Below are positions 3,468 to 55,810 of a stretch of DNA of 57,041 bases, one piece after another (the first letter of the stretch is position 1; each line of letters opens with the position of its first letter). The notes beneath the pieces are model-generated. The model was not told the origin of the DNA and did not search any database. It saw nothing but the letters and a program-made list of their open reading frames with translations. Source of the stretch: Chiloscyllium plagiosum (taxonomy: Eukaryota). The stretch covers positions 3,486,679 to 3,543,719 of the forward strand of contig NC_057719.1 in the NCBI RefSeq assembly GCF_004010195.1, given 5' to 3'. The position numbers were made by a program, and so were the translations under genes.

Positions 3468-3746
3468 TGGATGTAGGTTTGCTCTCTGAGCTGGAAGGTT
3501 CATTTTCAGATGTTTCATCACCATACTAGGTAACATCTTCAGTGAGCCTCTGAATGAAGCACTAGTGATGTAGCCCACTTTCAAATGTATAAATAAAAAA
3601 CGGGCTACACCACCAGTGCTTCATCCGGAGGCTCACTGAGTATGTTATCTAGTATGGTGACGAAACGTCTGAAAATGAACCTTGCAGCTCAGCGAGCAAA
3701 CCTACATCCAGAACCTCAACCTGAGCTACAAATCTTCTCCAAACTC
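3468..3746. mobile_element. Fold-back Penelope-like terminus (family D) with degenerate hammerhead core
   Basis: Inverted arms about 3468-3576 and 3602-3710. Combined consensus CTGAAGA-T-GTTACC-tagtat-GGTGAC-GAAACGTC. Confidence 0.7.
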
Positions 3747-3754
3747 ATTAGGCT

Positions 3755-4830
3755 CATTGAATGTATGTAGGGAATGGTGTTTAAAAATAGGGAGGTTTTA
3801 CTAAAAATGCACAAGGCACCAGTCAGACCACAAAAGACAACAAGCCAAAAGAACTGAGGATGGTGGAAATCAAAAACAGAAATTGCTGGAATAACTCAAC
3901 AGATACTTCAGAGAGAGAAATCAGAGTCAATGCCTCAGGGGCAGTGCGCTTCCTTCAGAACACAGCTGGAATACTGTGAACGACGGAGGGCCCACCACCC
4001 CCCCGAGCCAGGAAAGACTGGCATTTTGGAGGCAGTCCAGAGACGGTCCACTCGGCTGATCCTGACAATGGAGGGATAGCATTGTGAGGAGAGGTTGAGT
4101 AGGTTGGGCCTGGAGTTTAGAAGCAGCCTTATTGAAACACATAAGATTGCTAGGAGAGGTGACAGGGGAGATATCGAGAGATTGTTTCTCCTCATAAGAG
4201 AGTCCAGGAACAGAGGGCATGGTCTCAGATTTCAAGCGTACACATTGAAGACGGAGATGAGGAGGAATTTCCTCTCTCAGAGGGGAGTGAGTCTGTGGAA
4301 CTCTTTACCATAGAGTGATGTTGAGTCTGGGTCATTAAGTATTTTGGGGGAGGTGATGATCGCTTGGCATTATTGCTGGATTAATAATCCAGAGACTGGG
4401 TTCAAATCTTGCCATGGAGTTCAAATTCAGTAAAAACAAAACAAGAATTAAGAGTCCAACAAGGACTATAAAACCATTTTGATTGTCAGCTATACCCATC
4501 TGATTCACTAATGCCCTTCGGGGAAGGAAATCTGCCATCCTTACCCAGTCTGGCCTACATATAACTCCACATCCACAGCAACGTGGGTGTCTTTTAACTG
4601 CCCTCCAGGCATTTAGGGACAGGCAATGAATGTTGGCAAAGCCCTTGTCCCATGAGTGAATCTAAAAATATAGTCATAGCTGAGACAGATTTTAATCAGA
4701 AAGGGAATCAAGGGATATGGGAAAAGGCAGGAAAATGGAACTGAGGATTATCAGATCAACCAATTGAATGGCTCATCTCACTTGATGGGCTGAATGGCCT
4801 ACTCCTTCCCCTACTCTTATGGTCAAATAT
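3755..4830 (+). mobile_element. CR1 3' fragment interrupted by other repeats
   Basis: ORF 4095..4313 (SRLGL...RGHGL...KTEMRRNFLSQR) and CR1 3'UTR at about 4680-4830. Confidence 0.75.
4345..4670 (+). mobile_element. tRNA-headed SINE / bipartite non-autonomous LINE derivative
   Basis: B-box GGTTCAAATC. Body TTCACTAATG.CCTT..GGGAAGGAAATCTGCCATCCTTACC is shared with 48770-49050; tail is shared with LINE 3' ends at 8605 and 43200. Confidence 0.7.
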
Positions 4831-5028
4831 GGGAACCAGCCATCACCCAGACTGCATCTTGAAAGTGATGGTGAATGTGTGCATAAGAATGAAATACTTG
4901 TTTTAAACAGCAAACCAAAACCAATAAATGCATTTATTCTTTCCTCAGCTGCGGTCACCTGACTGAGAGAGCAGTTTTACTGAAGAAAGGAGCCTGGTGT
5001 TGAGTTGGCTGGGAGAAACGGGTAAGGA

Positions 5029-6391
5029 ATGGCGGAGGGAGAGAGTGGAATGGCCAAGGGAAGGACTCGGAGGTTGTGCAAGAGGAAGCCGCCACCCAGA
5101 GCATCTTCAGTTGATGATGGATCCCATTCTTCGCCCCAGTTGTCGGATGTTGAATCCTCCTCCTCCAAATCCTATGTCATCGAGTGGCTTTGTGCCCACC
5201 CATATCCTTCAACTGCCCTCACGTTCCCTTCTCCTGCTGAAGACCCCCCTTCGTTTCATGACATCTACCACCACAACCTGGAGAAGGTTGCATCCAGCAA
5301 CTCGTCACGGAGCTCGTTCGTGGTCAGCAGGCGGAGGCCGAATTCTGGGGCGGACATTTTCTGCCACACCAGCACACCCGGGCTGGAGATGGAGGAGGTG
5401 CCAACCTGCTGGCAAGCGCACACGGGGGGTGAATCTGCCCGACCTTGGAATCTGGCTCAACCGGTCAGTGCCAAGGCCCCCGCAGGGCTGGAGAGTCCCG
5501 GTACCGGCCTTCCCAATGGGCTCAATAACTACGCCCAAACTATTCGCTACTGCAACTGCAAACAGTCGGGGGGCTTTAAACACGGGAGGAGAAAAGACTC
5601 ACCTCTGGCTGGCCATCCAACTGAGATGTTGACCAACAGGCCAGAGAGAAAGGAAAACAAGATCGGTTCTTGTGAAATTCCTGGTGACGGGGGGCATTTA
5701 TCCCCAGGGGACGCCATGAAACCTGAGCCCAAAACCGCAAAAAGAACCCTCCCAGAGGCTGCTGGGACCTCTGTCCCCGAGGCCATTGTGACCTCTGACC
5801 CCGAGGAGAGCCAGTTTGCCAAGGGTGACCCGTGGCCGACGGACCCAGGACAGGCCAGACGAGGGGCGGCTGGACCGAAAATCAGCTCCACTCACCACAA
5901 GAAGACGTCCGGGCCGGATCTGCAGTTGAAGACACTGGGGATCACTGTGTCCGTGGGGGAGTGGAGGAACGAGGCGTCAGTCACAGAGTCCGCACAGCGT
6001 GCCTCCAGGCCTGGTGTGGCGCTAGGCCGAGCCGAGAACTCACCTCACGCTGCCGCTCAGTCTGCCTCACGGCCTGCGGGAAGCCCACCGAAGGCAACTC
6101 ACACAAAGCGTCAGGAAACTCAGCTCACCTTTAACCTCACAGCTGGGAAGGGTCTGTGTAGGAAAGGCGATGACCAGTGCAGGAGGACTGACCCACTGCC
6201 CAACGCCCAGGCGAAAATGCCGGCCTGTTCAGAAAGCTCAGGCTCTGACTCAGTGGAGGCAAGTCCCAGGTGCAGTCCTGAAGCCGGGACTTCCTCTCAG
6301 CTCCCCAGAGTCTCAGAAAAGGTCACCACGTGTCAAAGTTCACCACGGGTTCCGGAAGAACACCTGGGGCTGGGTGAAGTTTCAGGATCAG
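5029..6391 (+). CDS. First coding exon of an uncharacterised tandem-SAM-domain protein; large S/P/G/A-rich, probably disordered N-terminus (454 codons + 1 nt)
   Basis: Longest non-repeat ORF (5029..6474). Acceptor ttattctttcctcag|4949, an in-frame upstream stop (TGA 4960-4962), ATG in strong context (G at -3, G at +4), and donor CAG|GTATGT after 6391 (phase 1) that matches the next exon's phase. Confidence 0.75.
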
Positions 6392-6551
6392 GTATGTGTA
6401 CGGGGAAACACTCAGCACTAATACCATACTCGGGCCGAACGCAACATAACCAGGCGGGTGATGGAACGAAGTGAGGGTTTAACACGTCTCGCTTAAAACT
6501 TGCTCTGGCAGATTGATGGCCAAATGGCAAGTGAGCTGTCCTCCTCCATCC

Positions 6552-6737
6552 ATGATGTGGAGGAGCCGGTGTTGGACTGGGGTGGACAAAGTCAAAAATC
6601 ACGCAACACCAGGTTATAATCCAACAGGAAATCACAAGCGTTCGGAGCCTCCAACCTTCAAGGGGCAACACTCCGAAAGCTTATGTTTTCAAATAAACCT
6701 GTTGGACTATAACTTGGTGTGTGTGATCTTTGACCTT
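6552..6737. mobile_element. Short fold-back PLE terminus (family B)
   Basis: CACCAGGTTATAATCCAACAGG ... CCTGTTGGACTATAACTTGGTG inverted pair. Confidence 0.7.
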
Positions 6738-8224: not shown

Positions 8225-8388
8225 TGAGCCTTTCTGCACCCCAGAGGCTCCCAACCTCATTCCTGATGAAGGGCTCCGGCCTGAAGCGTCGATTCTCCTG
8301 CTCCTCGGATGCTGCCTGATCTGCTGCGCTTTTCCAGCACCACACTATCAACTCTGATCTCCAACATCTGCAGTCCTCACTGTCTCCT
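8225..8388 (+). mobile_element. PLE 3' terminus (family A), single arm, hammerhead core mutated (GAAA to GAAG)
   Basis: CTGATGAAGGGC..GCCTGAAGCGTC followed by GATGCTGCCTGA..CTGCAGTCCTCAC. Confidence 0.75.
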
Positions 8389-9496: not shown

Positions 9497-9605
9497 GTCA
9501 CCAATGTCTCAGGAGCACCCGTGTCTGTGGAGAAGATGGCGGCTGAGGAAGTCCGTCACTGGCTGATCAACTCTGGCTTCCACTCATGCCTTCAGCGAGT
9601 GAAAG
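9497..9605 (+). CDS. Coding exon, 109 nt, phase 0 to 1: N-half of SAM-like domain 1 (VTNVSGAPVSVEKMAAEEVRHWLINSGFHSCLQRVK)
   Basis: Acceptor cccctctcccag|, donor AAG|GTGAGA. The 'EEV..WL...GF' pattern is typical of SAM helix 1. Paralogous to 19904-20012. Confidence 0.85.
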
Positions 9606-12410: not shown

Positions 12411-13087
12411 TCTCTCCCACTTCACTCCATATTAATTTTTGTTCAGATATAAGTCTGATAAAATACAGGAATAGACATCTTGAATATTGAATGGGTTTGT
12501 TGTGTGAGCACTGCATTGTAATGTCAGGCCGGGTATGACTCAGTGCAAAACATTTTTATTGACTGCCCCCCCCTAGTGTAAGTTCAAAAATATTCACACA
12601 AAGAAAATAAACAATAACACTCTCACTCAGTATAGAATTGTCATCTTCAGCAATTCCTTTCCTCTATCTTTCCATGAAGTTAAATATAAGATTATTATCG
12701 AGATCTCGTCATGCCTATGATGTGGAGGTGCATTGCACCTGACAAAAAGGTTATGTTCCGAAAGCTTTTGATTTCAAATAAACCTGTTGGACTATAACCT
12801 GGTGCCGTGTGACTTCTGACTCAGTCATGTCTCGTAATTCCTTCAAAGAAATTGCTTTTCAGCTTCCTGACTGAGCTGACAACAATTGCCCTCCTCATTT
12901 CTGATGTAAAACTATAACGGGATGATGTTTAGGTTTCCAAATGCAAGTAACGAGAGTTCAGGGAGGTTTTCTAAAGAGTGACTGAGGGCTCTCTTATCAG
13001 GAAAGTTGATGACTCGTTAATTCTTCAGTCACTGTAAACAAAAAAATAATCTCCATCCTGACAAAGCTTTATCGTGCTAAATGACAG

Positions 13088-13266
13088 GGAGAAAGTGAAT
13101 ACTGCAGATGCTGGAGATCAGAGACAAAGAGTGCAGTGCTGGGCAAACACAGCAGGTCAGGCAGTGTCCGAGGAACAGCAGAGTCAACATTTCGTGCATA
13201 AGCTTGTCATTATTGCTGATGCTGCCTGACTGGCTGTGCTTTTCCAGCATCACACTTTTGGACTCT
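13088..13266. mobile_element. Degenerate fold-back PLE terminus (family A)
   Basis: GGAGAAAGTGA..ACTGCAGATGCTGGAG arm followed by inverted GATGCTGCCTGAC..TTTTCCAGCA. Another half arm lies at about 13445-13540. Confidence 0.7.
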
Positions 13267-13608
13267 TGCTAAATGACAACCAAACCGTAAATAAGGCTTA
13301 GTACCAACCTTTCATGAACATCCAGGTTCATATCTTCAAACAGGAAAAACCAACAGATAAGAATCATAGCACCGAATGAGATTAAATGAATGATAATTGG
13401 TTTCTGCACAAATCCGGCGGGGTTGTGTGGGGGGTGGCGAGGGGTGCCTTTGCCCGAAACGTCACTTTTTCCTGCTCCTTGGATGCTGCCTGACCTGCTG
13501 TGCTTTTCCAGCACCACTCTAATCTTGACCTTCTCCTGTGTGATAGGCTTACAGTTATTCCTATCCTTACCTCTCCATCTGACTGAAATTGGCCATGTTT
13601 CCAAGCAG

Positions 13609-13836: not shown

Positions 13837-14015
13837 GGAGAAAGTGAGGACTGCAGATGCTGGAGATCAGAGCCGAGAGTGTGGTGCTGGGAAAGCACAG
13901 CAGGTCAGGCAGCATCTGAGGAGCAGGAGGATCGACGTTTCGGGCATAAGCTCTTCATCATGCCCTGCTGCTGGGATGCTGCCTGACCTGCTGTGCTTTT
14001 CCAGCAACACACTCT
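13837..14015. mobile_element. Fold-back PLE terminus (family A) with target-site duplication
   Basis: Inverted arms flanked by TAGAGTTCA(G/A)GACA direct repeats. Confidence 0.8.
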
Positions 14016-15956: not shown

Positions 15957-16393
15957 TGATTTGGAGATGTCGGTGTTGGACTGGGGTGGACAAAGTTAAA
16001 AATAACACACCACATTATAGTCCAACAGGTTTAATTGGAAGCACTAGCTTTCAGAGCGCTGCTCCTTCATCAGGTGGGAGAAAGTGAGGACTGCAGATGC
16101 TGGAGACCAGGGTTGAAAAATGCGGTGCTGGAAAAACACAGCAGGCCAGGCAGCATCCGAGGAGCAGGAGAATCGACGTTTCCTGAAGAAGGGCTTATGC
16201 CCGTAACGTCGATTCTCCTGCTCCTCGGATGCTGCCTGGCCTGCTGTGTTTTTCCAGCACCACATTTTTCAACTCTGGTCTCCAGCATCTGCAGTCCTCA
16301 CTTTCTCCCACCTGATGAAGGAGCAGCGCTCTGAAAGCTAGTGCTTCCAATTAAACCTGTTGGACTATAACCTGGTGTTGTGTGATTTTTTAA
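15957..16393. mobile_element. Composite nested palindrome: PLE family B arms enclosing PLE family A arms; 13-bp TSD
   Basis: CTCAAAAAAGAAA at 15944-15956 and 16394-16406. Inner family A block 16077-16308. Confidence 0.85.
16309..16343 (+). ncRNA. Minimal type-I hammerhead ribozyme motif (family B); mirror copy on - strand at about 16042-16076
   Basis: CAC-CUGAUGA-A-GGAGC-agc-GCUCU-GAAAGCUA-GUG: helix I CAC/GUG, helix II, palindromic AGCU in place of helix III. Confidence 0.65.
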
Positions 16394-16779
16394 CTCAAAA
16401 AAGAAAGGTGTACTTGGTGAAAACCTTTTCACTTGTCAGGGAGACTAAAGCAAGGGATCACTATTATCACCAACAGAGCAACAGGGACCTCAGAAGAAGG
16501 TGTCTTTGTACCGAAAGCATTGAGAAGGTGGAATTTGCTGCAGCAGGAGTGGCTGGTATTGTCTCACTCAAGCAGAATGCCTGAGGGAAAGTAGATCGCA
16601 GGATGTGGAATACGGAAGGAATTTAGAGGAAACACATTGGATTTTCCATGTAGCTATGATCCCAGCTGAAGCTGCCCTTTCATACAGTCAAATCCGGACT
16701 GACATCTGGCTTGATTCATTATATTTTGATTTGTTTGGTTTTAAGAAAGTGAAACATGCAATGCTGCAGATTTTGGTTT

Positions 16780-18715: not shown

Positions 18716-19181
18716 TCCTGTATTGAATTGTATATACACGGAGGTTTATTAACAAAGCAAATGAAGATAAAATAGAATAAATAAACGCACCCATCTACTT
18801 AAAACACTGATCCAAAGATTGTTAAATAAAATTATATTCTCATTAATCCCAAAACACTCAGATTATAACTTGAAAAGAAGAATGGTCTTGTTTGATGATA
18901 ACCAAAACACATCCTGCTATCCGAAGAATGCACCTTGTATAGAACCTCGAAATATCACTTATACAATACCCACACCAAAGGACCTGTCTTTAACACCTCG
19001 TTAAGTTTAAATCTTTGGGTTACAAATTATAGACTTGAAATGCTCATAGCTTTTGGCAGGAGTTATTATATACCATACCTTAAATATACTCTGTTTTAAT
19101 AAACCTCTTCACTATTTTATCTTCACACGTTTGAGACGAATATTAAATCTTTACTCTGTGTTAACCAAATTCCACTTTATA

Positions 19182-19310
19182 CTGAGGAAGGCTCACTGGA
19201 CCCGAAACGTTAACTCTGGTCTCTCTCCACAGATGCTGCCAGAGCTGCTGAGCTTTTCCAGCAATTTCTGTTTTTGTTTCTGATTTACTGCGCCTGTAGT
19301 TTTTTGGATT
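19182..19310 (+). mobile_element. PLE 3' terminus (family C) with hammerhead-like core
   Basis: CTGAGGAAGG...GACCCGAAACGTTAACT then AGATGCTGCCAGA.CTGCTGAG..TTTCCAGCA. Related copies at about 3845-3930 (-), 24370-24450, 34570-34685 (-) and 46560-46655. Confidence 0.7.
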
Positions 19311-20160: not shown

Positions 20161-20411
20161 GTTAAAAATCACACAACACCAGGAAATGGTCCAACAGGTT
20201 TATCTGGAAGCACTAGCTTTCGGAGCGCTGCTCCTTCATCAGGTGGTTATGGAGAATAAGATCGTAGGACACAGAATTTAAATTAAACTACCTGATGAAG
20301 GTGCAGCGCTCCGAAAGCTAGTGCTTCCAAATAAACCTGTTGGGCTATTACCTGGTGCTGTGTGATTTTTAACTTTGTCCGTCCCAGTCCAACACCGGCT
20401 CCCCCACATCA
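20161..20411. mobile_element. Fold-back PLE terminus (family B) with hammerhead cores on both strands
   Basis: Arms about 20161-20244 and 20290-20373. The - strand 20211-20245 reads CACCTGATGAAGGAGCAGCGCTCCGAAAGCTAGTG. Confidence 0.85.
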
Positions 20412-22837: not shown

Positions 22838-22980
22838 ATGTCAGCTGTGGCTAAGTGGCCAGCACTTTTATATCTGAGCGCAAAGGTCACAGGATAAAAA
22901 CCTGAACCAGAGACCCAGGCTTAGAAATCTAGGTTGCAGCATTAGTATAGGACTGAGGGAGTGCTGCACTGTCAGAGGGT
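22838..22980 (+). mobile_element. Degenerate DeuSINE/SacSINE-type head leading into the minisatellite
   Basis: TCAGCTGTGGCTAAGTGG A-box-like head...AAATCTAGG...ACTGAGGGAGTGCTGCACTGTC. Similar Deu-like relics at about 24520-24600 and 24705-24860. Confidence 0.55.
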
Positions 22981-24325
22981 CAGTGCTGAGGGAGTGCTGC
23001 ACTGTCAGAAGGTCAGTGCTGAGGGAATGCTGCACTGTCAGAAGGTCACTGCTGAGGGAGCGCTGTATTGTCAGAACTGAGTACTGACGGAGTGCCGCAC
23101 TGTTGGAGGTTAAATACTGGGGGAGCGCTGTATTGTTGGAGAATCAGTACTGAGGGAGTGCCGCACTGTTAGAGGGCCAGTGCTGAGGGAGTGCTGTACT
23201 GTCGGAGGGTCAGTGCTGAGGGAGTGCTGCACTGTCGGAGGGTCAGTGCTGAGGAAGTGCCGCACTGTCAGAGGGCGAGTACTGAGGGAGCACCGCACGG
23301 TCGCAGGGTCAGTACTGAGGGAGTGCTGCACTGTCAGAGGGTCAGTACTGAGGGAGATCTACACTGCAGACGGTCAGTCACACTGTTGGAGGGTCAGTAC
23401 TGAGGGAGTCCCGTACTGTCGGAGAGTCAATGATGAAGGAGCGCTGCGCTGTCGGAGGGTCAATACTGAGGGAGTGCTACACTGGCGGAGGGTCAGTACT
23501 GAGGGAGTGCCACACTGTCAGGGGGTCAGTACAGAAGGAGTGCTACAGTGTCGGAGAATGAGTTCTGAAGGAGTGTCAGACTCTTGGAGGGGCAGTACTG
23601 AGGGAGTGCAGGACTGTTGGAGGGTCAGTAGTGAGAGAGAGCCACACTGTCGGAGAGTCAGTGCTGAGGGAGGGCCGCACTGTTGGAGGGTGAGTACTGA
23701 GGGAGGACCACACTGTTGGAGGGTCAGTACTGAGGGAATGCTGCACTGTCGGAGGGTCAGTACTGAGGGAGGGCCATACTGTCGGAGGGTGAGTACTAAG
23801 GGAGCGCCGCATTGTCAAAGGGTCAGTCCGGAGGGAATGCCGCACTATGGAAGGGTGAGTTCTGAGGGACTGCCACACTCTCGAAGGGTCAGTGCTGAGG
23901 GAGTGCAGCACTGTTGGAGGGTCAGTACTGAGGGAGAGCAACACTCTCAGAAGGAGAGTGCTGAGGGAGTGCTACATTGTTGGACAGTCAATACTGAGGG
24001 AGAGTCGCACTGTTGGAGAGTCAATACTGGAGGCAAGCAGCAATGTTGGATGGTCAGTTCTGAGGGAGTGCCACTCTGTTCGAGGGTCAGTGCTGAGGGA
24101 GTGTCTCACTATTGCAGGTTCAGTGCTGAGGGATTGCCACACTGTTGGATGATCAGTGCTGAGGGAATGCTGCACTGTCGGATGGTCAGTGCTGAGGGAA
24201 TGCTGCACTGTCGGATGATCAGTGCTGAGGGAATGCTGCACTGTTGGATGGTCAGTGCTGAAGGAATGCTGCACTGTCGGATGGTCAGTGCTGAGGGAGT
24301 GCCGCACTGTAGGAGGGTGAATACC
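22950..24325. repeat. 33-bp minisatellite, about 41 units, consensus CAGT(A/G)CTGAGGGAGTGCTGCACTGTCGGAGGGT
   Basis: Direct inspection. The 11-aa periodicity in ORF 23180..24487 confirms the unit length. Confidence 0.95.
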
Positions 24326-24939
24326 TCATCAGTTTCCAGTCGCATTTCAATTCTAAAGAACAATCTCTCAACTCGAAATGTTAACACTGTTTCGCTCCCC
24401 GCAGATGCTTCCAGACCCACTGAGTTTTTCCAGCACTTTCTGTTTTCACGTGAAATGGATTTTCCCATGATCAATGTTCACCCCTGAACCTGCATTACAC
24501 AAAGCTGCATTCCGTTGTCTTTAGTAGGATCTTGCTGTGCCGAAAGTGGCAGCTGCATTGCCTACGTAACAGCAATAGATGGGTCATGCCAGGAATTTAT
24601 TGTTGGTTCAGTGATTGCAGATTCCCAGGAAAGCCAATTTAAAAATGTGACTCCTTTGTGCTGTGTCATGTGTAAGGCAGTCAGCAGCACCTTTGTCTGT
24701 AGCATCATCAGGGCTGGCACTTCGAGGCAGTATCGAGGGAGTGCTGCTTTGTCAGCGGGGCTGTTTTTGGAATAAGTGTATCACTGAGGCCCTGCCTCTC
24801 CTCTCTGACACCCAATAGTTTTAGTGAGAGTTGTTTCATCTGGTATCCTGATAATAATACATAGAGATGTAATAATTATCTGTCAGCCACCTCCCTAGCC
24901 ATCTGAAATGCATCTATCTCATTATGTTCACTGGGCAAG

Positions 24940-34295: not shown

Positions 34296-35999
34296 GTTCA
34301 CCAGGCTGAGGTGAGGGGAAAGGTTGAGATGTAGAGTCCTTCATAGTCATCTCAGCCTGTGCAGGAATTGAACCAAAATGGTTGCAATCTCTAAGCATTA
34401 CAAACCAGCTATCCAGCCAATTAAGCTAACCAAAACATAATTAGATAGCTCCGTGAATGAGCTAACACAGACCTCCTTCTGTGTGGCATGACATAAGGAG
34501 AAGGGAAAATAGGGTTGACAATTTTTAGCCTTGTCTATCTGGAAGAACTGAGTTAAATAAAAGAAATACTGTGGACACTTCTGAAATCTGAAACAAAAAC
34601 AGAAATTGCTGTAGAAACTCAGCAGGTCTAGCAGCATTTGTGGAGAGAGAAACAGAGTTAAGGTTTCAAGTCCCTTCTTCAGAATATTTTTATTTGTGAA
34701 AGAAGTGGGTGACATGGCTGATTCACAATTTGGCCCTCCACCCTCCTACTTCATCAGAAATATTTCCAGGGATTAGACCATAAGACCATAAGACACAGAG
34801 GCAGAAATTAGGCCATTCAGCCCATCGAGTCTCTGCTCTGCCATTCAATCATGTTTGATAGGTTTCTTAACCCCATTCTCCCACTTTCTCCTCTTAAACC
34901 TTGATACTCAAGAACCTATCTGTCTCTGTCTTAAAAAACACTCAATGACCTGACCTCCGCAGTCTTCTGAGGCAATGGATCGTGTCGTGGATGAGGCTAA
35001 AGTCGGCTAATTGATGGCTTTGCTGATCTATCGAAAGTAGACTTTTATTTTGACACCTGAGCCAGGCTGAATGACCAGAACAAAGTGCATGTACATAGTG
35101 ACTTTAATGTACCATACAGACTGAGTTAAGGTAGGAAGCCTTTTACATACAGGGATGATGTTTGTGAGGGTTTGACCTCATGTGAGGGTTTGACTTGATG
35201 TGAAATTCACAATTGACCAGCAGTGTCGCAAAATCCAAGAAACGACATCAGCCTGGATTTGCCAATAAGAAGCTGGGTGTTGTAGTTGTGTATGGGAGCT
35301 GCATGCTGGGACAATGTGGATATCCCAGGCCAGCTGGCACCCTGGGAATTTCCAGAGAAGTTGAAATTTCCTTGAGAGAATTACTCAGCATCTTCAGTCC
35401 TCAGGAAAAGCCTCCTATTCCAAGTTAGATTCAGGGATTTTGGAGTTTCAATTCACTTCATCTTAAGAGCTACCCAAAATCCTGGAAGTCCAATCCGAAT
35501 GGCACAATACGTTTCTATATCCATGGACTACAGCAGTTCAAGAAGGCAGCTCAGGACCACCTTCTCAAGGGCAACTCACAATGGGCAGCAAATGCTGGGC
35601 CAGGGGGTGATGCCCACATTCAGGGAGAGAATGCTGAGCAAGGTCAGAAGAATGAAGAGGTCAAGAGATTAAAATCGCAGGTTATGAGTCACTAGTTAGG
35701 CCTTTATAGTAGAGCATTCTGGACCTGGTGTGGCAGAGGTTCACCAAAATTTTACCAGAGATGAAGAACCTCACTCATGCCAGTGATCAAAAAGGGTTGG
35801 GCTGTTACTCTCGGAGTGAGAAAGGTTAAAAGCTGAGCAGATACAGACTTTCAAAATGACAGATTTTATTTTGCAGTAAGCAGTGAAAACCTATTTCGCT
35901 GGGGCAGATTCAATGTCAATTTTATTTCATTCAGAGAATTGTCTCAAACCTCTCGCTGTGAAAGCCTTGTAGAAACCGACTTCCCTTTAAGAAGTACAC

Positions 36000-40500: not shown

Positions 40501-41039
40501 TGTAAATTGTGGTTATAATTCTGGGTTTATATGGTTGCATTGTTTGGAGCTGAGCCCACTCCAGAGCTAACACCCAGTCTATACATACGTCGACCCTCTG
40601 CCCACTATCAACTCTCAAACCTCAATTTTTAAACTCTCACTGAGTTTTAAGACCTTGGCCTACTCCCACTCCCAGCTCCCAACCTTCTGTCCTGTAACCT
40701 TTCAAGATCAACGCATCCCTGAACTTCCATTGTTCCACCATTAATGACCGTGCCCTTAGCTGCCAGGGCCTGAGTTCTGGATTTCTCTCTCTCACCTTCA
40801 GCAACTCAAGATATTGTTTAAAGTCTAGCTCTTTGACCAGTGTTAATGTGTTTGGGGCTCAAGGTCAAACTGTGTTTGATAATTATCCTCGTGGGGAGCT
40901 TTTGAGTACATTACAGCAGTAAAGACTCAGTATCAACGCAAGCCATTGAAGTGATGAGGGAACCAGTCCCTCACCCTCAGCTAGAGTACTACGGCTGAAG
41001 TATATTATGCCTGAATTTCCAGGTTCTCATTGACAGTCC

Positions 41040-41196
41040 TTGGTTTGTGTCACTCTCTCCACCAATCCCCTGAATCCCCAGGTACCTTCCTGCAAGTATA
41101 AAAGATGTAAATCCTGCCGGTACCCCACCCCCCTCACCTCTATCCAGAGCCCCCCCAAACAGCCCTTCCAAGTGAGACAGAGGTTCACCCGTCTCT
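41040..41196 (+). mobile_element. PLE (Neptune-like) RT-endonuclease linker fragment, cut by assembly gap
   Basis: CKYKRCKSC..LTSIQSPPKQPFQVRQRFT, a Cys-rich linker. Confidence 0.65.
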
Positions 41197-42019: not shown

Positions 42020-43260
42020 TGCCAGGCAATGACCATCCCCAGTAAGAGACTATCCAACCTGCACACCTTGACGTTCAACTATACTATTTATTGAGGTGGA
42101 GATGCCAGTGTTGGACTTGGGTGGACTCGGTTCAAAGACACATGACACCAGATTACAGTCAAACGGGTTTATTTGAAATCACAAGCTTTCGGAGCAGAGC
42201 TCCGGAATAAACCTGTTGGACTGAAACCTGGTGTTGTGTGACTTCTGACTGTTATTGAAGGCCTCACTATCAACATCCTGGGAGTTACCACTGATCAGAA
42301 ACTCAACTGAACTCACCACATAAACACAATGGTAATGAGAGCAGGTCAGAGGCTACGGATACTGCGGTGGGTAACTCACCTCCTGACTCCCCAAAGCCTG
42401 CCCACCATCAACAAGACACAAGTCAGGAGTGTGATGGAATCCTCCCCACTTGCCCTGGATGGGGGCAGCTCCAACAACACTCAAGAAGCTTGACACCATC
42501 CAGGACAAAGCAGCCGCTTGATTGGCACCACATCCACAAACATCAACTCCCTCCACCACCGGCGCTCAGTAGCAGCAGTGTGTACCATCTACAAGATGCA
42601 CTGCAGAAACTCATCAAAGATCCTCAGACAGCACCCTCCAAACCCATGACCACTTCCATCTAGAAGGACAAGGGCAACAAATACATGGGAATACAGCCCT
42701 CTGCAAGTTCCCCTCCGAGCCACTCACCATCCTGACTTGGAAATATATTGCCGTTCCTTCACTGTCGCTGGGTCAGAATCCCGGAATTCGCTTCCTAAGG
42801 GCATTGTGGATCAACCCACAGCACATGCATGGATAGGGTAAATAGGCGGAGTCTTTTCCCTGGGATCAGGGAGTCCAGAACTAGAAGGTGAGAGGGGAAA
42901 AATATAAAAGAGACCTACGGGGCAACTTTTTCACACAGTATGGAATGAGCTGCCAAAGGAAGTGGTGGAGACTGGTACAATTGCAACATTTAAGAGGCAT
43001 TTGGATGGGTATATGAATAGGAAGGGTTTGGAGGGATATGGGCTGGGTGCTGTCAGGTGGGACTAGATTGGGTTGGGATATCTGGTCGGCATGGACGGGT
43101 TGGACTGAAGGGTCTGTTTCCATGCTGTACATCTCCATGACTCTATGACATGGACTGCAGCGGTTCAAGAAGGCAGCTCACCCCACCTTCTCAAGGGGCA
43201 ACTACAGAGGGGGTAATAAATGCTGGGCCAAGTCAATGACACTGCTCCCAAAAATGAATT
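42020..43260 (+). mobile_element. 3' part of tRNA-headed LINE family, with a family B PLE hairpin (about 42093-42250) and a CR1 3' end (about 42826-43148) inserted
   Basis: Homologous to 8605-9210 in the opposite orientation. Confidence 0.8.
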
Positions 43261-43669: not shown

Positions 43670-44910
43670 TAAGAACGTAGAGTTCGATGGCACAGTAACA
43701 GATCCTTCAGCCCATCTTATCAGTACATGGTCGGTATCACTCTATTTTCTGCCTGTTCGTGTGTCTGGCTAAATGCCTCTTATATATTGTTGTTGTATCT
43801 GCTTCTACTTGCCCTGGAAGCACCGACCACACTCTGTGTAACAAAACCTGCTTCACGCATCTCCTTTAAACTTTCCCCCTCTCATGTGAAACTTATGCCT
43901 GCTCGTCTTTGACATTCCCACTCTGGAAGAAACTGACTATCCACCCTATCCATGTCTCCAATAATTTTATACACTTGTACATGGTCACCCTAGAGCCTCC
44001 GAAGCTCCAGTGAAAGCAACCCAAGTTTGTCCAACCTCTCCCTGTAGCTAATGCACTCCAATACAGGCAACATTCCCCCTAAACCTCTTCTGCACCCTTT
44101 CCAAAACCTCCACATCCTTCCTTTAGTGTGGGGACCAGTCTGCACACAATATCCCAAATGTGGCCTCACTAAAGTCTTATACAACTGCGACAAGACTTGC
44201 CAATTTCTATGCTCAGTGCCCCAGCCAATGAAAACAATATGCCATTTGCCTTCTTTACCATGTTGGAGGAGAAAGTGAGGACTGCAGATGCTGGAGATCA
44301 GAGCTGGAAATGTGTTGCTGGAAAAGCGCAGCAGGTCAGGCAGCATCCAGGGAACAGGAGAATCGATGTTTTGGGCATAAGCCCTTCTTCAGAAGAAGGG
44401 CTTATGCCCGAAACGTCAATTCTCCTGTTCCCTGGATGCTGCCTGACCTGCTGCGCTTTTCCAGCAACACATTTCCAGCTTCTTTACCATGTTATCTACT
44501 TGTGTTGCCACTTTGGTCTTGTACCCCAAATCCCTCTAAAATCAATGTTCCACATGGTACTGCCATTGACTGTGTACTTTCCTCTTGCATTTGACCTCCC
44601 ACAATGCATCATGTCACACTTGTCCAGATTAAACTCCATCTGCCATTTCTCTGCCCGACTTTCCAACTGCTCTACATCCTGCTGTATCCTTTGATGACCT
44701 TCCTCACTATCCACAACTCCACCAATGTTCATGTCATCAGCAAACTTACTAACCAGACCAGCTACATTTTCATCCAAATCATTCATATATATCACAAACA
44801 GCAAAGGGCCCAGCACTGATCCTTGTGGAACACCACTGGTCACAGACCTTCAGTCAGAAAACACTTCTCCACAACTACCTTCTGTCTTCTCTGAACAAGC
44901 CAATTTATAA
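43670..44910 (-). mobile_element. CR1 RT/3' fragment
   Basis: [21 protein letters not shown]...KFADD. Confidence 0.92.
44265..44478. mobile_element. Fold-back PLE terminus (family A) inside CR1, 15-bp TSD
   Basis: CTTCTTTACCATGTT at 44250-44264 and 44479-44493. Arms meet at CTTCTTCAGAAGAAG. Confidence 0.88.
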
Positions 44911-45228: not shown

Positions 45229-46665
45229 AAACAATTTTGTTACTCAGCGTTTCTATTTGTGAAGTCCAGGATGCCATATGCTTTCCTTTTGACTCTTAGA
45301 ATAGACAATAGACAATAGGTGCAGGAGTAGGCCATTTGGCCCATCGAGCCAGCACTACCATTCATTACAATCATGGCTGATCATCCGCAATCAGTATCCT
45401 GTTCCTGCCTTATCCCCTTAACACTTGATTCCACTATCTTTAAGAGCTCTATCTATCTCTTGCCACCTTCAGGGATTGAGACATACGCATTGCTGGGTAC
45501 TGTACCAGTGCATCTGCAGCACCTTTAGGGAAAGAAACTGCCATCCTTACTTGGTCTGGCCTACATGGGACTCCAGACCCACAGCAATGTGGTTGAATCT
45601 TAACTATCCTCTGGGTAATTAGGTTGGGCAATAATGGCATGGCTCAGCCAGTGATGCCCTCATTCCATGAATGAATAAGAAAAGTCTATACTGCCATGCA
45701 TTGTCCCTTCTGCAATACTTCAAACCCCCCTTCACTAACTTCCATTTGCCACAAGTCTGTGCACTCAGCCAACCTATCAATGTCCTGTTCTATGTGAGTC
45801 AAATCATTCTCTTTATTTGGTATAGAGTATATCCTCATATTCAGTTGTAGTTACATTCCTGAAAATTACAACTTTAAGTGAAATGACTTTAAGTGAATCC
45901 GGGTTTCCCATAAGATACATGTTAAACCCTTTGGTTAAATCCTTGGGATAGTTCTCACCCAGAACAACTGATGTGTAAATTCAAATGTTGCAATAAACAT
46001 GTGCATTACAAGCTGAAAGAATTGGCAAACTAAAATAGATTACTAAATACAAACGATAGAAAATATACAAGTTTTTTTTTTAAATGCACTCATTGTACAT
46101 TCAAATAAGAGAAAAATGCTGCAGATGCTGGAAATCAGAAACAAACACAGGAGTTGCAGGAGAAACTCAATAAAATAAAGCAAAGATAGTGAAGTAAACA
46201 AGACACAAATAAGATAAGGTTGTTCTCTGTAGAAAGGAACCATCTTCTTCCTTTCCCACCTTAAATTACACCCATTTTACATCTCCATTTCTCATTCTTT
46301 TCAATTAATAACTTCCTCACCTACTGTACTGCAACACCACACCATCTGTTCCTGTTGTCCGTCTTCTCCCTCTGTCAAAAAGCCTAACAGAGGAACAACA
46401 GAATAGGAGGAGGCCATTCAGCCCCTCAAGCTTTCAATGAGATTCAATGAGATCATGGGTCATCTGTGGTCTAACTCCCTATATCTGCCTTTGACCCATA
46501 TCCCCAAATAAGTTTGTTTAACAATTTTGCTTGTAAATCCTGATTTCCAACCACTTTCAGTTGTGAAGAAGGGTCACTGGACTCGAAACATTAGCTCTGT
46601 TTCTCTGTTTACAGATGCTGCCAGATCTGCTGAGTTTTTCCAGCATTCTCTGTGTACATTTACAT

Positions 46666-47611
46666 TGATGTGAAGGAGCCAGTGTTGGACTGGTGTGGAT
46701 AAAGTTAAAACTCACACAACACCAGGTTACAGTCCAACAGGTTTAGTTGGAAGCACTAGCTTTCAGAGCGCTGCTCCTTCATCAGGTAACTAAAGGGGCA
46801 GGATAATAAGACACAGAATTTATAGCAATTAAAACGATATATTGAACAATCCTGGATTGCTGATAAATCTTAGACAGACATGCAAACTCTCTCTCAGACA
46901 CACGCTGTCTTTCAGAAACACTCGCTCATTCTCTCTCACACACACATCTCACAGGTTTATACTCTGTCACACTCACGCACACACTCCACTGAGCACGCAC
47001 ACACAAAAACACACTCTCTCATGTGCACACACACTCACACGTGCACACTCACATGCACACACAAAAACACACTCTCTCAACACACACACACACTCTCTCT
47101 CTCCCTCACATACATGCACACACATACAATTTGCAGAAACATTCTATTTTTGCTCAAAAAGCACACAATCTGCAGGCAGTCAATCCATATATTATATCAA
47201 TTCCTACTTTGGAAACAGAACCAGTGTGTCTCAAAATTAGGATACAGATCGACTCTAATCTCACACCTTTATGTGGTAGAGCCAGTGTTGGACTGGGTTG
47301 GACAAAGTTAAAAATCACACAAAATAGACTACTACCTGGTGATGTGCGATTTTTAACTCACACCTTTAGTATATTGTCTGAGCTGAGATGTCACCTTTTT
47401 TTAATAAAATCTTATGTTATCTTAAGAATGTGACTTGAAAGAAGTTCTGGGACTTACACATTAATGAATCAATACCTGCAACCCATTCTAAAAGATGAAA
47501 GACTTAACAGCACTAGTTACCTGACGGAGGAGCAGAGCTCTGAAAGCTAGTGCTTCTGAATAAATCTGTTGGACTAGAACCTGGTGCTGTGCTAGTTTTA
47601 ACTTTGTCCAC
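46666..47611. mobile_element. PLE family B remnant: inverted terminus plus CA-rich 3'UTR plus sense terminus
   Basis: 46666-46875 is the inverted end. CA-rich tract 46880-47130 as in 56470-56660. Terminal hammerhead-like CTGACGGA...GAAAGCTAG at about 47521-47550. A mini hairpin is inserted at about 47272-47357. Confidence 0.8.
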
Positions 47612-47650
47612 TGGCTGCTTTAGATCAATGTAAGTGTACACAGAGAATGC

Positions 47651-47847
47651 TAAAAATCACACAACACCAGGTTATAGTCCAACAGGTTTGTTTGGAAGCA
47701 CACTAGCTTTCGGAGTGACGCTCCTTCATCAGATGATTGTCGCTCCGAAAGCTAGTGCTCCCAATTAAACCTGTTGAACTATAATCTGGTGTTGTATGAT
47801 TTTTAACTTTGTACACCCCAGTCCAACACCAGCATCTCCAAATCATG
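47651..47847. mobile_element. Fold-back PLE terminus (family B)
   Basis: Inverted arms flanked by ACAGAGAAT(G/A)CT direct repeats. Confidence 0.8.
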
Positions 47848-47964
47848 ACAGAGAATACTGGAATGGTGTTGTGCAATGTTTAACTGCATTTACATTGTCC
47901 AGCCTCCATCTAGTGGCAGATGTTGCTCAGTGCAGGTTATAATCAGAATCCCAGACAATCAGGA

Positions 47965-49660: not shown

Positions 49661-49664
49661 GAAA

Positions 49665-51843: not shown

Positions 51844-52061
51844 GGAGAAAGTGAGGTCTGCAGACGCTGGAGATCAAAGCTGAAACTTTATTGCTGGAAC
51901 AGCACAGCAGGTCAGGCAGCATCTAGGGAACAGAAGATTCGACGTTTCGGGCACATGCCCTTCTTCATTCCTGAAGAAGGGCATGTGCCCGAAACGTCGA
52001 ATCTTCTGTTCCCTAGATGCTGCCTGACCTGCTGTGCTGTTCCAGCAATAAAGTTTCAGCT
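51844..52061. mobile_element. Young fold-back PLE terminus (family A): 90-bp arms, 4-nt loop, TSD; intact hammerhead at 51967-52002
   Basis: Arms 51878-51967 and 51972-52061. GCTAACAAGGAAGG at 51832-51845 and 52059-52072. Confidence 0.9.
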
Positions 52062-52178
52062 AACAAGGAAGGTCAAAGGTTGAATTCGATAAAAGAATGG
52101 GCCTTGCAAAGTTGCAGAAAAATGTCAGCCTTAGGCTTGGGATCTTTTGGATTTCTGTAATGATGTCAGTCATACCAG

Positions 52179-53530
52179 TAACGTGGAAGTGCCAGTGTTG
52201 GACTGGGGTGGACAAAGTTAAAAATCACAGGTTATAGTCCAACAGGTTTATTTGGAATTATTAGCTCTCAGAGTGCTGCCCCTTCATCAGGTAGTTGTGG
52301 GGGTTAAGATCATGCTCACTGAATTTATAGCCAAAGGAGTGCAGTGTCATGGAGATATGATACATTAAACAATCTTAGATTAAAACTTTCATTTTTTACA
52401 ATGGGATATACAGGTTTCTGCGCTTTGATCTGTAAATCCCAGAATGTCTTTAAATAACATTCCCAAGATAGCTCCGCTTTTTAAACAGTAGGTGTGAAGT
52501 CTGTCTGTGTCCCAATGCTATGTCAGACTGACATACCCTCGGTATAGTTTTACAGGGTTTTACATGGATTCATGCAGTTTTTGAGCAAAATAAAATGTAA
52601 TTCAGCAAAAACAAATCCACCCCATAAGCTTTTAAAAGTGCGCGTGTAGGAACGGCAGATTGATTGTGCGTGTGAGTGTGTGCGTGTGCGTGTGAGTGTG
52701 AGCATGTGAGTGTGAGCATGTGAGTGTGTGCATGTGAGTGTGTGCGTGTGAGTGCATGTGATAAGAGTGTGCGTGTGTGTGTATATATATATATGTGTGT
52801 GTGTGTATAAGCTTGGTTAAGTATGTGTGTGAGTATGATGGGGTATGTGTGAGAGGGTGCATGTGTTGGTGTGAGTGTGGAAGATGCATGTGTGTGCATA
52901 TGAGAGACATCTTGTGTGTGGTGTGTGTGTGTGTGTGTCTATGTATGTGTGCATGTGTGTGTGTGTCAGACAGAGAGTGTCTGTGTGTGTCTGTGTGTGT
53001 GCAGTGGGTACTGAACTTAGCTATCAGCCTCTGCTGGGTCACTTTGCATTGTTGCTTGACCCAAAGTCCGCCTTGGAGGATGGTTATACAAAGGTCCGAG
53101 ATCGAATGTCCCGGACCGCTGAAGTGTTCTCCAACTAGGAGGGAACACTCCTGTCTGTGGATTGTTGTGCGGTGCCCATTCACCCGTTGTCGTAGCCTCT
53201 GCTCCATCTCACCGATGTGCCATGGCTCAGGGCATCCTTGCCTGCAGTGTATGAGATAGACAATGTAGGCCGAGTCACATGAGTACTCACTGCATACATG
53301 ATGGGTAGTGTCCACATGTGTAATGGCATTACCCGTGCCGATACTCTGACATGTCTTGCAGCAGCTGCTGTGGCAGGGTTGTATAGAGCTGTTGTGCCGA
53401 AGGCTGGGCAGTTTGCTACGAATCTGTTTAAGGTTTGGTGGCTTTTTAAAGATGAGAAGTTGAGGCTTGGGGAAGGTCTTGGCGAGGTGCTGATCCTCAT
53501 CGATAATGTGTTGCAGGCTGTGAAGAACAT
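52179..53530 (-). mobile_element. 5'-truncated Penelope-like (Neptune-like) retroelement with GIY-YIG endonuclease, family B terminus
   Basis: ORF 52632..53315: YIVYLIHC...HIGE...LRQRVNGHR...VGEHF. Upstream linker QPCHSSCCKTC. CA-rich UTR and terminus 52179-52300. Confidence 0.9.
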
Positions 53531-53569
53531 GGGGTGGCTATGTTCATATCAGCGTAATTCCTAAGTAGT

Positions 53570-55620
53570 TAGTCATAGAGTCCTACAGCACACAGACAGG
53601 CCCTTTGGCCCAAACTGGTCCATGCCGACCAAAATGTCCATCCATGCTAACCCCATTTCCCTGTACTTGGCCCATACCCTTCTAATCCTTTCCTATCCAT
53701 GTATTTATCCAAATGCCTTTTAAATGTTGTTAATGTACCCACCTCAACCACTTCCACTGGCAGCTCATTCCATATGCGTACCACCCTCTGTGTAAAAGAG
53801 TTGCCCCTCAGGTTCCCTTTCATTCTTTCCTCTCTAACCTTAAACTGATGCCCTCTCGTCCTCGATTCCCCAACCCTGGGGAAAAGGCTGAGTGCTTTCA
53901 CCCCATCCATATCTCTTATCATCTTATACACCTCTATAAGGTTCACCCCTCAATCTTCTACACTCTAAAGAAAAAGGTCCTAGCTTCTCCAACCTCTCGT
54001 TATAATGCAGATCCTGGATTCATCTTTGTAAATTTCTTCTGCACTCTTTCCAGTTTAATAACATCTTTCCTATTAGCAAGGCCAGTGTTCCAAAAGCCGC
54101 CTTCCCTGCCCTGTCAACCTGTGACTCCACTGTCAGAGACCCGTGCACCTGAACTCCAAGGTCCCTCTGTTCCACTATACTCCTTAAGGCCCTACCATTC
54201 ACCATGAGACTCCTACCTTGACTTGACTTTCCAAAATACAGCACTTCAAACTTATTCATATTAATCTCCTTTTGCTATTTCTCACCTCACTTTCCCAGGT
54301 CCTGCTGCAATTTCTAATAACCTTCCTCACTGTCTATAATATCTCCTATTTTAGTTTCCCGCCTTGTATATTCTTATCCAAATAATTGATATAGATAACA
54401 AACAGCAATGGGCCCAGTACCGACCCCCTGAGGCACTCCACCAGTAACAGGCCTCCAATCCGACAAGCATCCTCCCTCTATTACCCTCTGCTTGCTACCA
54501 ATTGTGTGTCCAATCTGACAGCTCCCCCTGGATTCCATGTGATTTAACCTTCCAGAGCAGCCTACCATGTGGAACNNNNNNNNNNNNNNNNNNNNNNNNN
54601 NNNNNNNNNNNNNNNNNNNNNNNNNNNNNNNNNNNNNNNNNNNNNNNNNNNNNNNNNNNNNNNNNNNNNNNNNNNNNNNNNNNNNNNNNNNNNNNNNNNN
54701 NNNNNNNNNNNNNNNNNNNNNNNNNNNNNNNNNNNNNNNNNNNNNNNNNNNNNNNNNNNNNNNNNNNNNNNNNNNNNNNNNNNNNNNNNNNNNNNNNNNN
54801 NNNNNNNNNNNNNNNNNNNNNNNNNNNNNNNNNNNNNNNNNNNNNNNNNNNNNNNNNNNNNNNNNNNNNCACGACACTCCTTAAGGCCCTACCATTCACC
54901 ATGAGACTCCTACCTTGACTTGACTTTCCAAAATACAGCACTTCAAACTTATCCATATTAATCTCCTTTTGCTATTTATCACCTCACTTTCTCAGCTGAT
55001 CTAGGTCCTGCTGCAATTTCTAATAACCTTCCTCACTGTCTATGATATCTCCTATTTTAGTGTCACGCCTTGTATATTCTTATCCAAATCATTGATATAG
55101 ATAACAAACAGCAATGGGCCCAGTACCGACCCCCTGAGGCACTCCACCAGTAACAGGCCTCCAATCCGACAAGCATCCTCCCTCTATTACCCTCTGCTTG
55201 CTACCAATTGTGTGTCCAATCTGACAGCTCCCCCTGGATTCCATGTGATTTAACCTTCCAGAGCAGCCTACCATGTGGAACGTCATCAAAGGCCTTACTG
55301 AGATCCACATAGACTACGTCTACCACCCTGCCCTCATCAACCTTCCTGGTCACTTCATCAAAAAACTGTGACAAATTTGTGAGGCAGGGTCTCCCACTCA
55401 CAAAGCTGTACTACCTGCTCCTAATCAAACCCTGTCTTTCCAAATGCACATGTATCTTATCTCTCATAATCTTCTCAATTAACCTACCTACCACAGATGT
55501 TAGGCTGGCTGGGCTATAGTTCCCAGGTTTCTCTTTGCCGCCCTTCTTGACAAAGGGCACCAACATCCGCCAGCCTCCAGTCTTACGGGAACTCACCCGT
55601 GGCTAACGATGATGCAAAAT
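53570..55620 (-). mobile_element. CR1 RT/3' region spanning an assembly gap
   Basis: ORFs 53647..53946, 55201..55401 (YVDLSKAFD) and 55411..55596. Confidence 0.9.
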
Positions 55621-55624
55621 TATC

Positions 55625-55810
55625 AGGCGAGAGTGAAGACTGCAGAGGTTGGAGGTCAGAGTTGAGAGTGTGTTGCTGGAAAAGCACAGCAGGTCAGGCA
55701 ACATCCAAGGAGCAGGAGAATCGATGTTTCGAGCATAAGCTCATCATCAGGATCCTGCTCCTGCTCCTCAGATGCTGCCTGACCTGCTGTGCTTTTGCAG
55801 CACCACATGT
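55625..55810. mobile_element. Degenerate fold-back PLE terminus (family A)
   Basis: Inverted arms, with an imperfect TGAT(G/A)CAAAA.TATCAG direct repeat on the flanks. Confidence 0.7.

Follow-up and report, generated by a model that had tools for sequence, protein, structure and literature searches.

Asymmetric head-to-head inserts of non-coding Penelope-like ends in a stretch of the Chiloscyllium plagiosum genome

Penelope-like elements (PLEs) usually carry an inverted, 5'-truncated copy and have a tail of 30-40 bp at one end (PMC8557442; PMC3846280; the papers cited here are represented by excerpts of their text). Their minimal hammerhead ribozymes are reported to cleave as dimers (PMC6765202; PMC4209133). 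Besides numerous solitary motifs associated with truncated PLEs, Cervera and de la Pena 2014 (PMC4209133) described pairs of hammerheads on opposite strands 100-700 bp apart. For Poseidon of Anolis carolinensis (PAc), both strands are cut and extended, two start sites bound the tail, the enzyme is predicted to be a dimer, and ribozyme cleavage is unnecessary (PMC11167929). How inverted and tandem PLE structures are formed is a stated open question (PMC8557442; PMC11167929), and the excerpted text of PMC11167929 is silent on the joining of inverted arms and on the position of RNA polyadenylation. Non-LTR retrozymes of animals have been found in one cartilaginous fish (bioRxiv 10.64898/2026.07.22.740005).

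Inserts made of PLE ends were analyzed in a 57,041-nt stretch of Chiloscyllium plagiosum DNA (GCF_004010195.1, NC_057719.1, positions 3,486,679-3,543,719, forward strand), called the window here. Thirteen head-to-head hairpins lie in it (Table 1). The 12 start coordinates listed by the first-pass annotation are all outer ends of head-to-head inverted inserts; beyond these, there is a 13th hairpin at 47273 and an old, interrupted family C pair at 46105. Twenty-two inserts, bounded by hand, total 3,894 bp or about 7% of the window, and most units have no coding sequence and measure 85-440 bp. Some hairpins are nested inside older insertions, and divergence between the arms of a hairpin reaches 17%. 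Target-site duplications (TSDs), which had been reported for several inserts, were scored against 1,500 attempted random flank pairs, with N-containing pairs dropped. They were found at P<0.03 in 10 of the 13 hairpins; the hairpin at 42093 is borderline (7 bp, P 0.067) and those at 3468 and 6552 have none. Comparison of the flanks of single arms in the window gave no convincing TSD.

The arms had been described as a PLE terminus plus its inverted copy. They are inverted, but they are not simple copies, since an extra tail of 33-38 nt is always present on one arm only. Numbered from the ribozyme cut site, the distal ends lie at +97 in family A, +87 to +91 in family B and about +76 in family D (one copy), and the proximal ends at +58 to +64, +52 to +58 and +41, respectively. 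Every hairpin (13/13) has one long and one short outer end (P 1.2e-4 under an independent 50:50 choice; the long end of family D is known from one copy). This pairing of a tailed with an untailed arm matches the two reverse-transcription start sites of lizard Penelope (PMC11167929). The inserts have neither symmetric terminal inverted repeats nor a fixed TSD length: the ends are asymmetric and the TSDs vary from 9 to 17 bp among hairpins.

The ends are also fixed in position. All nine long A arms end exactly at +97, and the lengths of eight of them fall in a single 28-nt interval (P 0.0004 compared with exponential truncation). Loose ends of contigs accumulate in three places: the long end of family A, the vicinity of its short end, and the end of family B. 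Among the 38 arms tallied for their starts, 24 begin between -43 and -8, the front edge of the hammerhead. The stop has exceptions: of the other arms, seven begin downstream of the cut site (+4 to +37) and seven far upstream. The suggestion that the inserts are truncation products does not hold in the sense of random truncation, as the ends sit at fixed places. In 7 of the 13 hairpins, the untailed arm extends further upstream than the tailed arm, which means that both arms contain sequence absent from the partner. A later, asymmetric deletion at the palindrome center could mimic this pattern. The centers of three of the youngest hairpins show microhomology of 3, 1 and 3 nt.

Table 1. Coordinates of PLE-derived features (positions are those of the window)
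Feature	Position	Strand or arms	Flanks and details
Family D hairpin	3468-3745	short arm - (3468-~3590), longer arm + (to ~3745)	no clear TSD
Family D ATG	in helix II of the 3468-3745 hairpin		opens 34 codons across the presumed tail
Family C single arm	3866-3972	-	
Old family B hairpin	6552-6735	long arm left, short right	TSD not found
Family A single long arm	8256-8387	+	begins at helix I
Old family B single short arm	12745-12821	+	
Family A hairpin	13088-13265	long/short	TSD 12-15 bp
Family A single short arm	13446-13525	+	
Family A hairpin	13837-14015	long/short	TSD 16 bp, 1 mismatch
Nested chimeric palindrome	15957-16395	B long (-), A long (-), A long (+), B short (+)	A-to-B junction identical in both arms; 13-bp TSD; 3-nt center microhomology
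Family B poly(A) module	16350-16390	+	A(A/T)TAAA, cleavage 16367/16370, GU-rich tract downstream
Family C single arm	19172-19300	+	
Family B hairpin	20161-20411	short arm left, long right	TSD 14 bp, 2 mismatches
Family C single arm	24355-24446	+	
Family A single short arm	28504-28577	+	
Young family A hairpin	30422-30856	arms 185/186 identical	15-bp TSD; far upstream reach, -122 and at least -152
Family C single arm	34562-34685	-	
Old family B hairpin	42093-42255	long/short	borderline TSD
Family A hairpin	44265-44481	long/short	15-bp TSD; center within CUGA core
Probable old family C hairpin	46105-46655	long arm -, short arm +	TSD-like flanks, ~380 nt of other DNA between
Complex family B insertion	46666-47880		contains two younger B hairpins
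Family B hairpin	47273-47358		without hammerhead; 12-bp TSD
Family B hairpin	47651-47845		9-12-bp TSD
Young family A hairpin	51844-52061	arms 90/90 identical	14-bp TSD; 3-nt center microhomology
5'-truncated Penelope-like element	52179-53537	-	GIY-YIG-type C-terminal frame, CA-rich 3' region, family B long end
Family A hairpin	55626-55812	long/short	17-bp TSD, 2 mismatches
Second truncated copy of GIY-YIG element	56104-57041	+	runs into family B upstream sequence at window end

Four distinct families had been proposed. The core and tail of family A recur in family C, matching at 88% over 34 nt (E 6e-9), which reduces the number to three lineages, of which D amounts to a single insertion. A strict descriptor of the minimal type-I hammerhead found 8 intact motifs, compared with a mean of 0.03 (maximum 1) in 60 Markov-resampled windows, while Rfam at gathering scores gave no matches in the window. 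The motif takes the form CUGAnGA-N-helix II-GAA-palindrome-H plus helix I. Its palindromes, ACGU in A, C and D and AGCU in B, were seen as first annotated, as were helix I strands that differ between families yet pair. The claim that all inserts keep the motif stands at the level of families. Of 40 arms examined, however, just 8 satisfy the descriptor, and the hairpin at 47273 lacks a hammerhead altogether. In most arms, the ribozyme is cut off or decayed. An exact 27-nt family A pattern was found at no locus in metagenome contigs.

The proposal that family B is the end of the GIY-YIG element was borne out. The family B end is contiguous with the frame at 53004-53531(-), and family B upstream sequence follows the second GIY-YIG fragment. 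Shark proteins, among them one with RVT_1, match this frame at 63-67% identity, and the motifs of the frame suggest the GIY-YIG and Neptune types. A Pfam search of the GIY-YIG frames returned no families. Families A, C and D have no adjoining coding sequence within the window, and a weak homologue search with a 41-codon family D frame gave eight candidates, none of them scored.

RNA reads place the 3' end of family B transcripts. About 2% of one poly(A)-primed single-cell RNA run (X21) was used, with duplicates retained, and 1,631 of 6,844 reads (711 + 920 loose ends) end in poly(A) just past the B AATAAA. These ends lie at +27 and +30, upstream of both B start sites, and the 20 nt of template that follow them contain just 1-3 A. 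The reads are assigned to family B generally, and their source loci may differ from the poly(A) module in Table 1. The position of this poly(A) site is a new observation here. Since it precedes both start sites, priming would be forced into the 5' copy in the RNA, which would yield run-off stubs. Pairing probabilities for five long B arms led us to reject masking of the B AAUAAA by the tail: in four of them, the hexamer is less paired when the tail is present. The data are not taken as evidence of A-to-I editing of hairpin RNA: A>G and T>C sites are commoner in the RNA run, yet every other kind of change is commoner too, and the strand bias is inconsistent. Single arms fold no better than shuffled sequence (z +0.6 to -1.5, 5 arms).

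We conclude that the inserts are minimal non-coding Penelope-like ends, probably made afresh at every insertion site, with reverse transcription priming on each of the two nicked target strands, a reading we hold with some reserve. The GIY-YIG endonuclease would nick the two strands 9-17 nt apart, as the TSDs and PAc biochemistry suggest. Priming would then use the distal start site on one strand and the proximal start site on the other, consistent with the two kinds of outer end. Most cDNAs would stop at or inside the hammerhead front, where the arm starts cluster, either because the template RNA has its 5' end there or through stalling of the enzyme; run-off from the RNA 5' repeat is favored because the B poly(A) site is upstream of both start sites. 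The two cDNA ends may finally be joined via 0-3 nt of microhomology. The resulting hairpins are likely dead ends, and in read-through RNA the hammerhead would be buried in a long duplex.

Another explanation, which we find unlikely but take seriously, is that the inserts are one-off PLE by-products whose second arm arose by fold-back self-priming, with the copy stopping at the short site and the center being trimmed asymmetrically later. For the arm similarity described below, this is a simpler account than two primings, which require that one source RNA be copied twice, and it needs no coordination to produce a long end and a short one. For rotifer PLEs, self-priming has been proposed (PMC3846280). 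The arms of the youngest hairpins are also closer to each other than to any other scored copy: in the four youngest with A arms, arm-to-arm identity is 100, 99.5, 98 and 97%, and the best other scored copies reach 95.6, none scored, 91 and 90.5%, respectively. The chimeric A-to-B junction shared by both 15957 arms fits this explanation as well. However, in 7 of the 13 hairpins neither arm is a subset of its partner; these include the hairpins with 100% and 99.5% identical arms, and such identity leaves little time for trimming of the center. At the short ends, 1-3 nt are shared between arm and TSD, as expected of primed ends, and in vitro PAc uses the two start sites on each of the two strands (PMC11167929). 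If ribozyme self-cleavage instead defined the stubs, as in retrozymes, the cut would create the RNA end that is copied. The seven arms starting at +4 to +37 agree with this, as do two better-supported contig joints with one side at +4 (A) and +3 (B). Yet joints near +1 are favored by helix I complementarity alone, the reach of old copies is under-called by local alignment, and 31 of 38 arms pass through the cut site. Uncleaved reads are present in run X21, with no pile-up of RNA ends along the stretch, a test in which short 3' products would be lost. There are no tandem unit arrays as in non-LTR retrozymes, and cleavage is unnecessary for PAc insertion (PMC11167929). We therefore consider self-cleavage as the origin very unlikely.

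The first-pass annotation also offered a self-propagating, MITE-like hairpin class, in which whole hairpins are transcribed and re-inserted. The PLE origin and the alternative of extreme truncation or by-products were supported; this class was not, within the reach of the tests below. Abundance speaks for it: 92,582-126,579 contigs per run match a 261-nt piece, with a summed depth of up to 1.9e7 compared with 15.5 on unique flank, and the 15957 palindrome may derive from a non-coding chimeric transcript. Recurring loop junctions were the proposed sign of such propagation, but all 13 centers are unique in the window, the one extra match being the reverse complement of 44265 itself. In three public contig sets, junctions are scattered; the joints are spread over at least 342 rows, and among 15 of these the best head-to-head joints have 5-14 contigs each, at a depth of at most ~540, compared with ~10^5 contigs per run, in a survey that is biased against very high-copy junctions and can miss one fragmented into short unitigs. 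The A-to-B junction reaches 0.5% of the family peak depth, and no piece among the matches listed spans the composite. The strict long/short outer ends are not expected of a re-copied hairpin. Unique centers and the lack of a dominant contig junction make this class highly improbable. Opposite-strand joints between the A long end and the B end were the strongest among the matches listed (up to 75 contigs) and were not accepted as fusions because contigs across unique DNA between neighboring elements give the same result. Assembly or library fold-back artefacts, finally, deserve hardly any credence. Palindromes do arise from fold-back chimeras and no contig piece spans the whole examined stretch, but this is opposed by the TSDs of 10 of the 13 hairpins, by ends that are fixed for each element, by the divergence between arms and by nesting in older insertions.

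A more specific and tentative form of the two-strand priming model is possible, in which the stubs would correspond, for PLEs, to the strong-stop DNA of retroviruses, with copies integrated by the hundred thousand. With B RNA polyadenylated 27-30 nt after the hammerhead, the start sites would be usable only in the 5' repeat, where a dimeric enzyme would prime both target strands and run off the RNA 5' end just ahead of the hammerhead. Full-length copies would then need read-through or a template jump. If this is true, the shark genome preserves, on a very large scale, natural traces of the second-strand step that is still missing from PLE transposition. The stubs form a very large, countable set of insertion footprints that obey a strict long/short rule, and the B poly(A) position offers a testable reason why most copies are tiny. 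They also place poly(A) signals and long RNA hairpins genome-wide.

MITEs are short, non-coding elements with inverted ends, TSDs and high copy number. The shark stubs differ from them in their asymmetric ends, unique centers, variable TSD length and retroelement-derived ends. A crocodilian parallel to the stubs may be 'Chompy'. Non-LTR retrozymes of animals resemble the stubs in being non-coding and PLE-derived, with type-I hammerheads and many dispersed monomers, but they are head-to-tail tandems with two hammerheads on one strand, whereas the stubs are head-to-head with hammerheads on opposite strands (bioRxiv 10.64898/2026.07.22.740005). No same-family head-to-tail tandem occurs in the window, and two motifs share a strand only in the chimeric A-then-B arms at 15957, where the A motif is damaged or cut. 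Metazoan PLE hammerheads are likewise minimal type-I motifs in which helix III is palindromic and helix II is preceded by an unpaired base; the excerpted text of PMC4209133 does not describe the long/short rule or the 5' clustering and names no sharks. The stubs share with EN+ PLE insertion units the head-to-head inverted ends, the tail at one end, the TSD and, in family B, the C-terminal GIY-YIG frame, and differ in that they are mostly non-coding and short and make up about 7% of the window. The stub class is already described and is probably not a new mobile element. PAc, an active coding element studied in vitro, also has two fixed 3' ends bounding the tail and an ATG in helix II, as in shark family D, and for PAc as for the stubs, sequencing data show an absence of RNA ends where the ribozyme cuts (PMC11167929).

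The 13 hairpins in the window (named here by their start coordinates) are built by one rule. Each consists of two arms, that is, two copies of a Penelope-like element (PLE) 3' end, and all 13 are head to head, with the hammerhead-bearing strand facing outward at both sides. At the outer ends, one arm is long, carrying an extra tail, and the other is short in 13/13 hairpins (1.2e-4 if independent), with the D long end known from one copy. The inserts listed by the first-pass annotation were all recovered in inverted-repeat and self-alignment scans of the window. Forty arms (17 A, 16 B, 5 C and 2 D) were aligned, using single window arms as references and counting ends from the predicted ribozyme cut site. 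The four distinct families proposed earlier become three lineages because A and C have core and tail in common; D is one locus. Target-site duplications (TSDs) were detected in 10 of the 13 hairpins, with lengths of 9-17 bp (P<0.03 compared to random flank pairs). None was seen for 3468 and 6552, and 42093 is borderline. No convincing TSD was found for single arms in the window.

The 3' ends are fixed. All nine long A arms end at +97; in B, the long arms reach +87 to +91. The ends of the short arms lie near +58 to +64 in A (for three older arms, taken from the arm alignment plus their TSDs), +52 to +58 in B and +41 in D. The extra stretch is the 30-40-bp tail known for PLEs (PMC8557442; PMC3846280). 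In Poseidon of Anolis carolinensis (PAc), a lizard Penelope, two reverse-transcription start sites delimit the tail, both target strands are cut and extended, and ribozyme cleavage is dispensable (PMC11167929). In long arms of A, B and D, base pairing is possible between the tail and a segment 15-25 nt past the cut site, which would place the short end inside the paired structure. This pairing is 9 bp in A (6/9 long arms, P at most 0.012), 9-10 bp in B (6/7 long arms, P 0.02-0.16, one of the six using a different segment) and 7 bp in D. A shared recognition fold is possible.

The 5' ends are clustered. After two self-reference arms were dropped, 24 of 38 arms have their starts between -43 and -8; a further seven lie at +4 to +37 and seven far upstream. 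Four of these values are minimum estimates, and a single B arm was assigned by hand to the upstream class. Eight of nine long A arms fall within one 28-nt length window (P 0.0004). Most arms, single arms included, thus cross the cut site and halt at the front edge of the motif, where either the RNA would begin or the enzyme would stall. Drosophila Penelope has a start site 46 nt before an intron (PMC2377424) whose end adjoins helix I (PMC4209133), a precedent for a start close to the motif.

A strict descriptor detected 8 intact minimal hammerheads in the window compared to 0.03 expected; an Rfam search of the window found no hammerhead. The compensating helix I was confirmed, as its sequence differs between lineages while pairing is kept in each, a pattern suggestive of selection on the source elements. 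Since the two motifs of a hairpin lie on opposite strands, the same-strand dimer that cleavage is believed to require (PMC4209133; PMC6765202) is not open to them. Read-through RNA of hairpins is predicted to be one long duplex, with 98-196 pairs in three young copies.

Coordinates of features in the window
Feature	Position (strand)	Description
D frame	3642-3743 (+)	ATG at helix II start opens 34 codons through the tail
Open frame	5026-6474 (+)	482 codons; without a Pfam family; probable large exon of the host
Short coding motif	near 9530 and 19930	apparently repeated
Chimeric palindrome (15957)	15957-16395	nested; A long end joined to B at helix I
Region compared with public data	16180-16440	one A arm and one B arm
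B poly(A) positions	16367 and 16370	A-run read ends
Recurrent joint	16390 to 16357	two extra letters
Flank of chimeric insertion	16414-16440	single-copy depth in organism B contigs too (flank alone)
Tandem repeat	22949-24324	~1.4 kb; open frame on one strand
CxxC-type frame	41034-41196 (+)	short; broken by assembly gap
Complex B insertion	46666-47880	long end with 13-nt deletion, ~30 nt of own left flank inverted, short degenerate B end, TSD-like repeat; two younger B hairpins nested within
B end of element	52179
GIY-YIG-type frame	53004-53531 (-)	contiguous with B end through a CA-rich stretch
Second element fragment	56104	runs into B upstream sequence at window end

Two routes to the second arm were weighed. 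In the chimeric palindrome, the A-to-B junction is identical in both arms. Such a chimera requires that copying jumped between templates of the two families or that a non-coding transcript, already chimeric, was copied again. Fold-back copying with subsequent asymmetric trimming at the centre accounts well for this doubled junction and for the likeness of the youngest arms, which resemble one another more closely than they do any further copy. However, in 7/13 hairpins (6552, 15957, 20161, 30422, 47273, 47651 and 51844) the untailed arm extends further upstream than the tailed one. Each arm therefore has sequence absent from the other, which a plain fold-back copy cannot yield, and we regard the fold-back route as rather unlikely. 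Two separate primings are the explanation we favor, with some reservation. The centre overlaps in three young copies are 3, 1 and 3 nt. By either route, a hairpin is a one-off product. The structure of the complex B insertion is suggestive of template switching to target DNA.

The proposal of self-propagating, MITE-like hairpins was not supported. Centres are unique in the window, where no 23-nt centre word recurs (up to 2 mismatches). The region containing one A and one B arm was also compared with three public contig sets, two from organism A and one from organism B, and with one raw RNA run. Matching contigs numbered 92,582-126,579 per set. Summed depth, which is no copy number, peaked at 1.9e7 compared to 15.5 on unique flank; rough copy bounds are 4e4 to 1e6. 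Head-to-head joints were scattered, the best occurring in 5-14 contigs with depth up to ~540 (best 15 of 342 joints), in a count that is incomplete and that could miss a very frequent junction broken up into short unitigs. This scatter supports, but does not prove, the case against propagating hairpins. The A-to-B junction had a contig depth of 0.5% of peak, and among the listed pieces none spans the stretch; in public contigs, it is not a large family. One joint recurs at depths of 917, 434 and 1,208 in the three sets; in a joint table without orientation, its most natural reading is a truncated B copy placed head to tail after a B short end.

A poly(A) site was found in family B. In one single-cell poly(A) run, ~2% read and with duplicates kept, 711 and 920 of 6,844 matched reads end in A-runs at two positions, with host 3' UTRs possibly among the sources. 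These ends sit ~12-15 nt past the B A(A/T)TAAA and ahead of a GU-rich tract, and sense-strand depth drops there from 2,415 to 668. For these copies, internal priming is an unlikely source of the ends, since the next 20 nt of template hold only 3 and 1 A, and no genomic A-run was found at this position in any window copy. A total of 1,367 reads extend beyond helix I and enter sequence upstream in B, suggesting that longer B copies are a main read source. Both B ends (+54, +91) lie downstream of this site, which is at +27/+30. RNA finished at this position lacks any 3'-terminal start site, so priming would need the 5' repeat, and might then yield short run-off cDNA. The RNA run, from which short products would be missing, showed no accumulation of read ends at the two cut sites. 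A survey of openly available papers, mostly at the level of listings, found no report on PLE polyadenylation relative to start sites.

The link between the B end and a GIY-YIG-type element was upheld by their contiguity. The frame shows 63-67% identity to unnamed shark proteins, one of them with an RT domain. A Pfam search of the GIY-YIG-type frames gave no match; from its motifs, we take the B frame to be GIY-YIG and Neptune-type. A, C and D are assigned to PLEs by architecture only. The motif of the CxxC-type frame is presumably similar to the linker found in a different PLE family; the frame's match to P0002 was not significant (E 0.23).

The window inserts are a real, dense population of PLE stubs and not a new mobile class. 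What they add is mechanistic: the long/short rule in three lineages, a chimeric palindrome and a poly(A) site upstream of both starts. A homologue search with the D frame found none; PAc likewise has an ATG in helix II that opens a frame. The layout of an inverted copy plus tail is a known one, and opposite-strand pairs of minimal hammerheads were tied to truncated PLEs in 2014 (PMC4209133).
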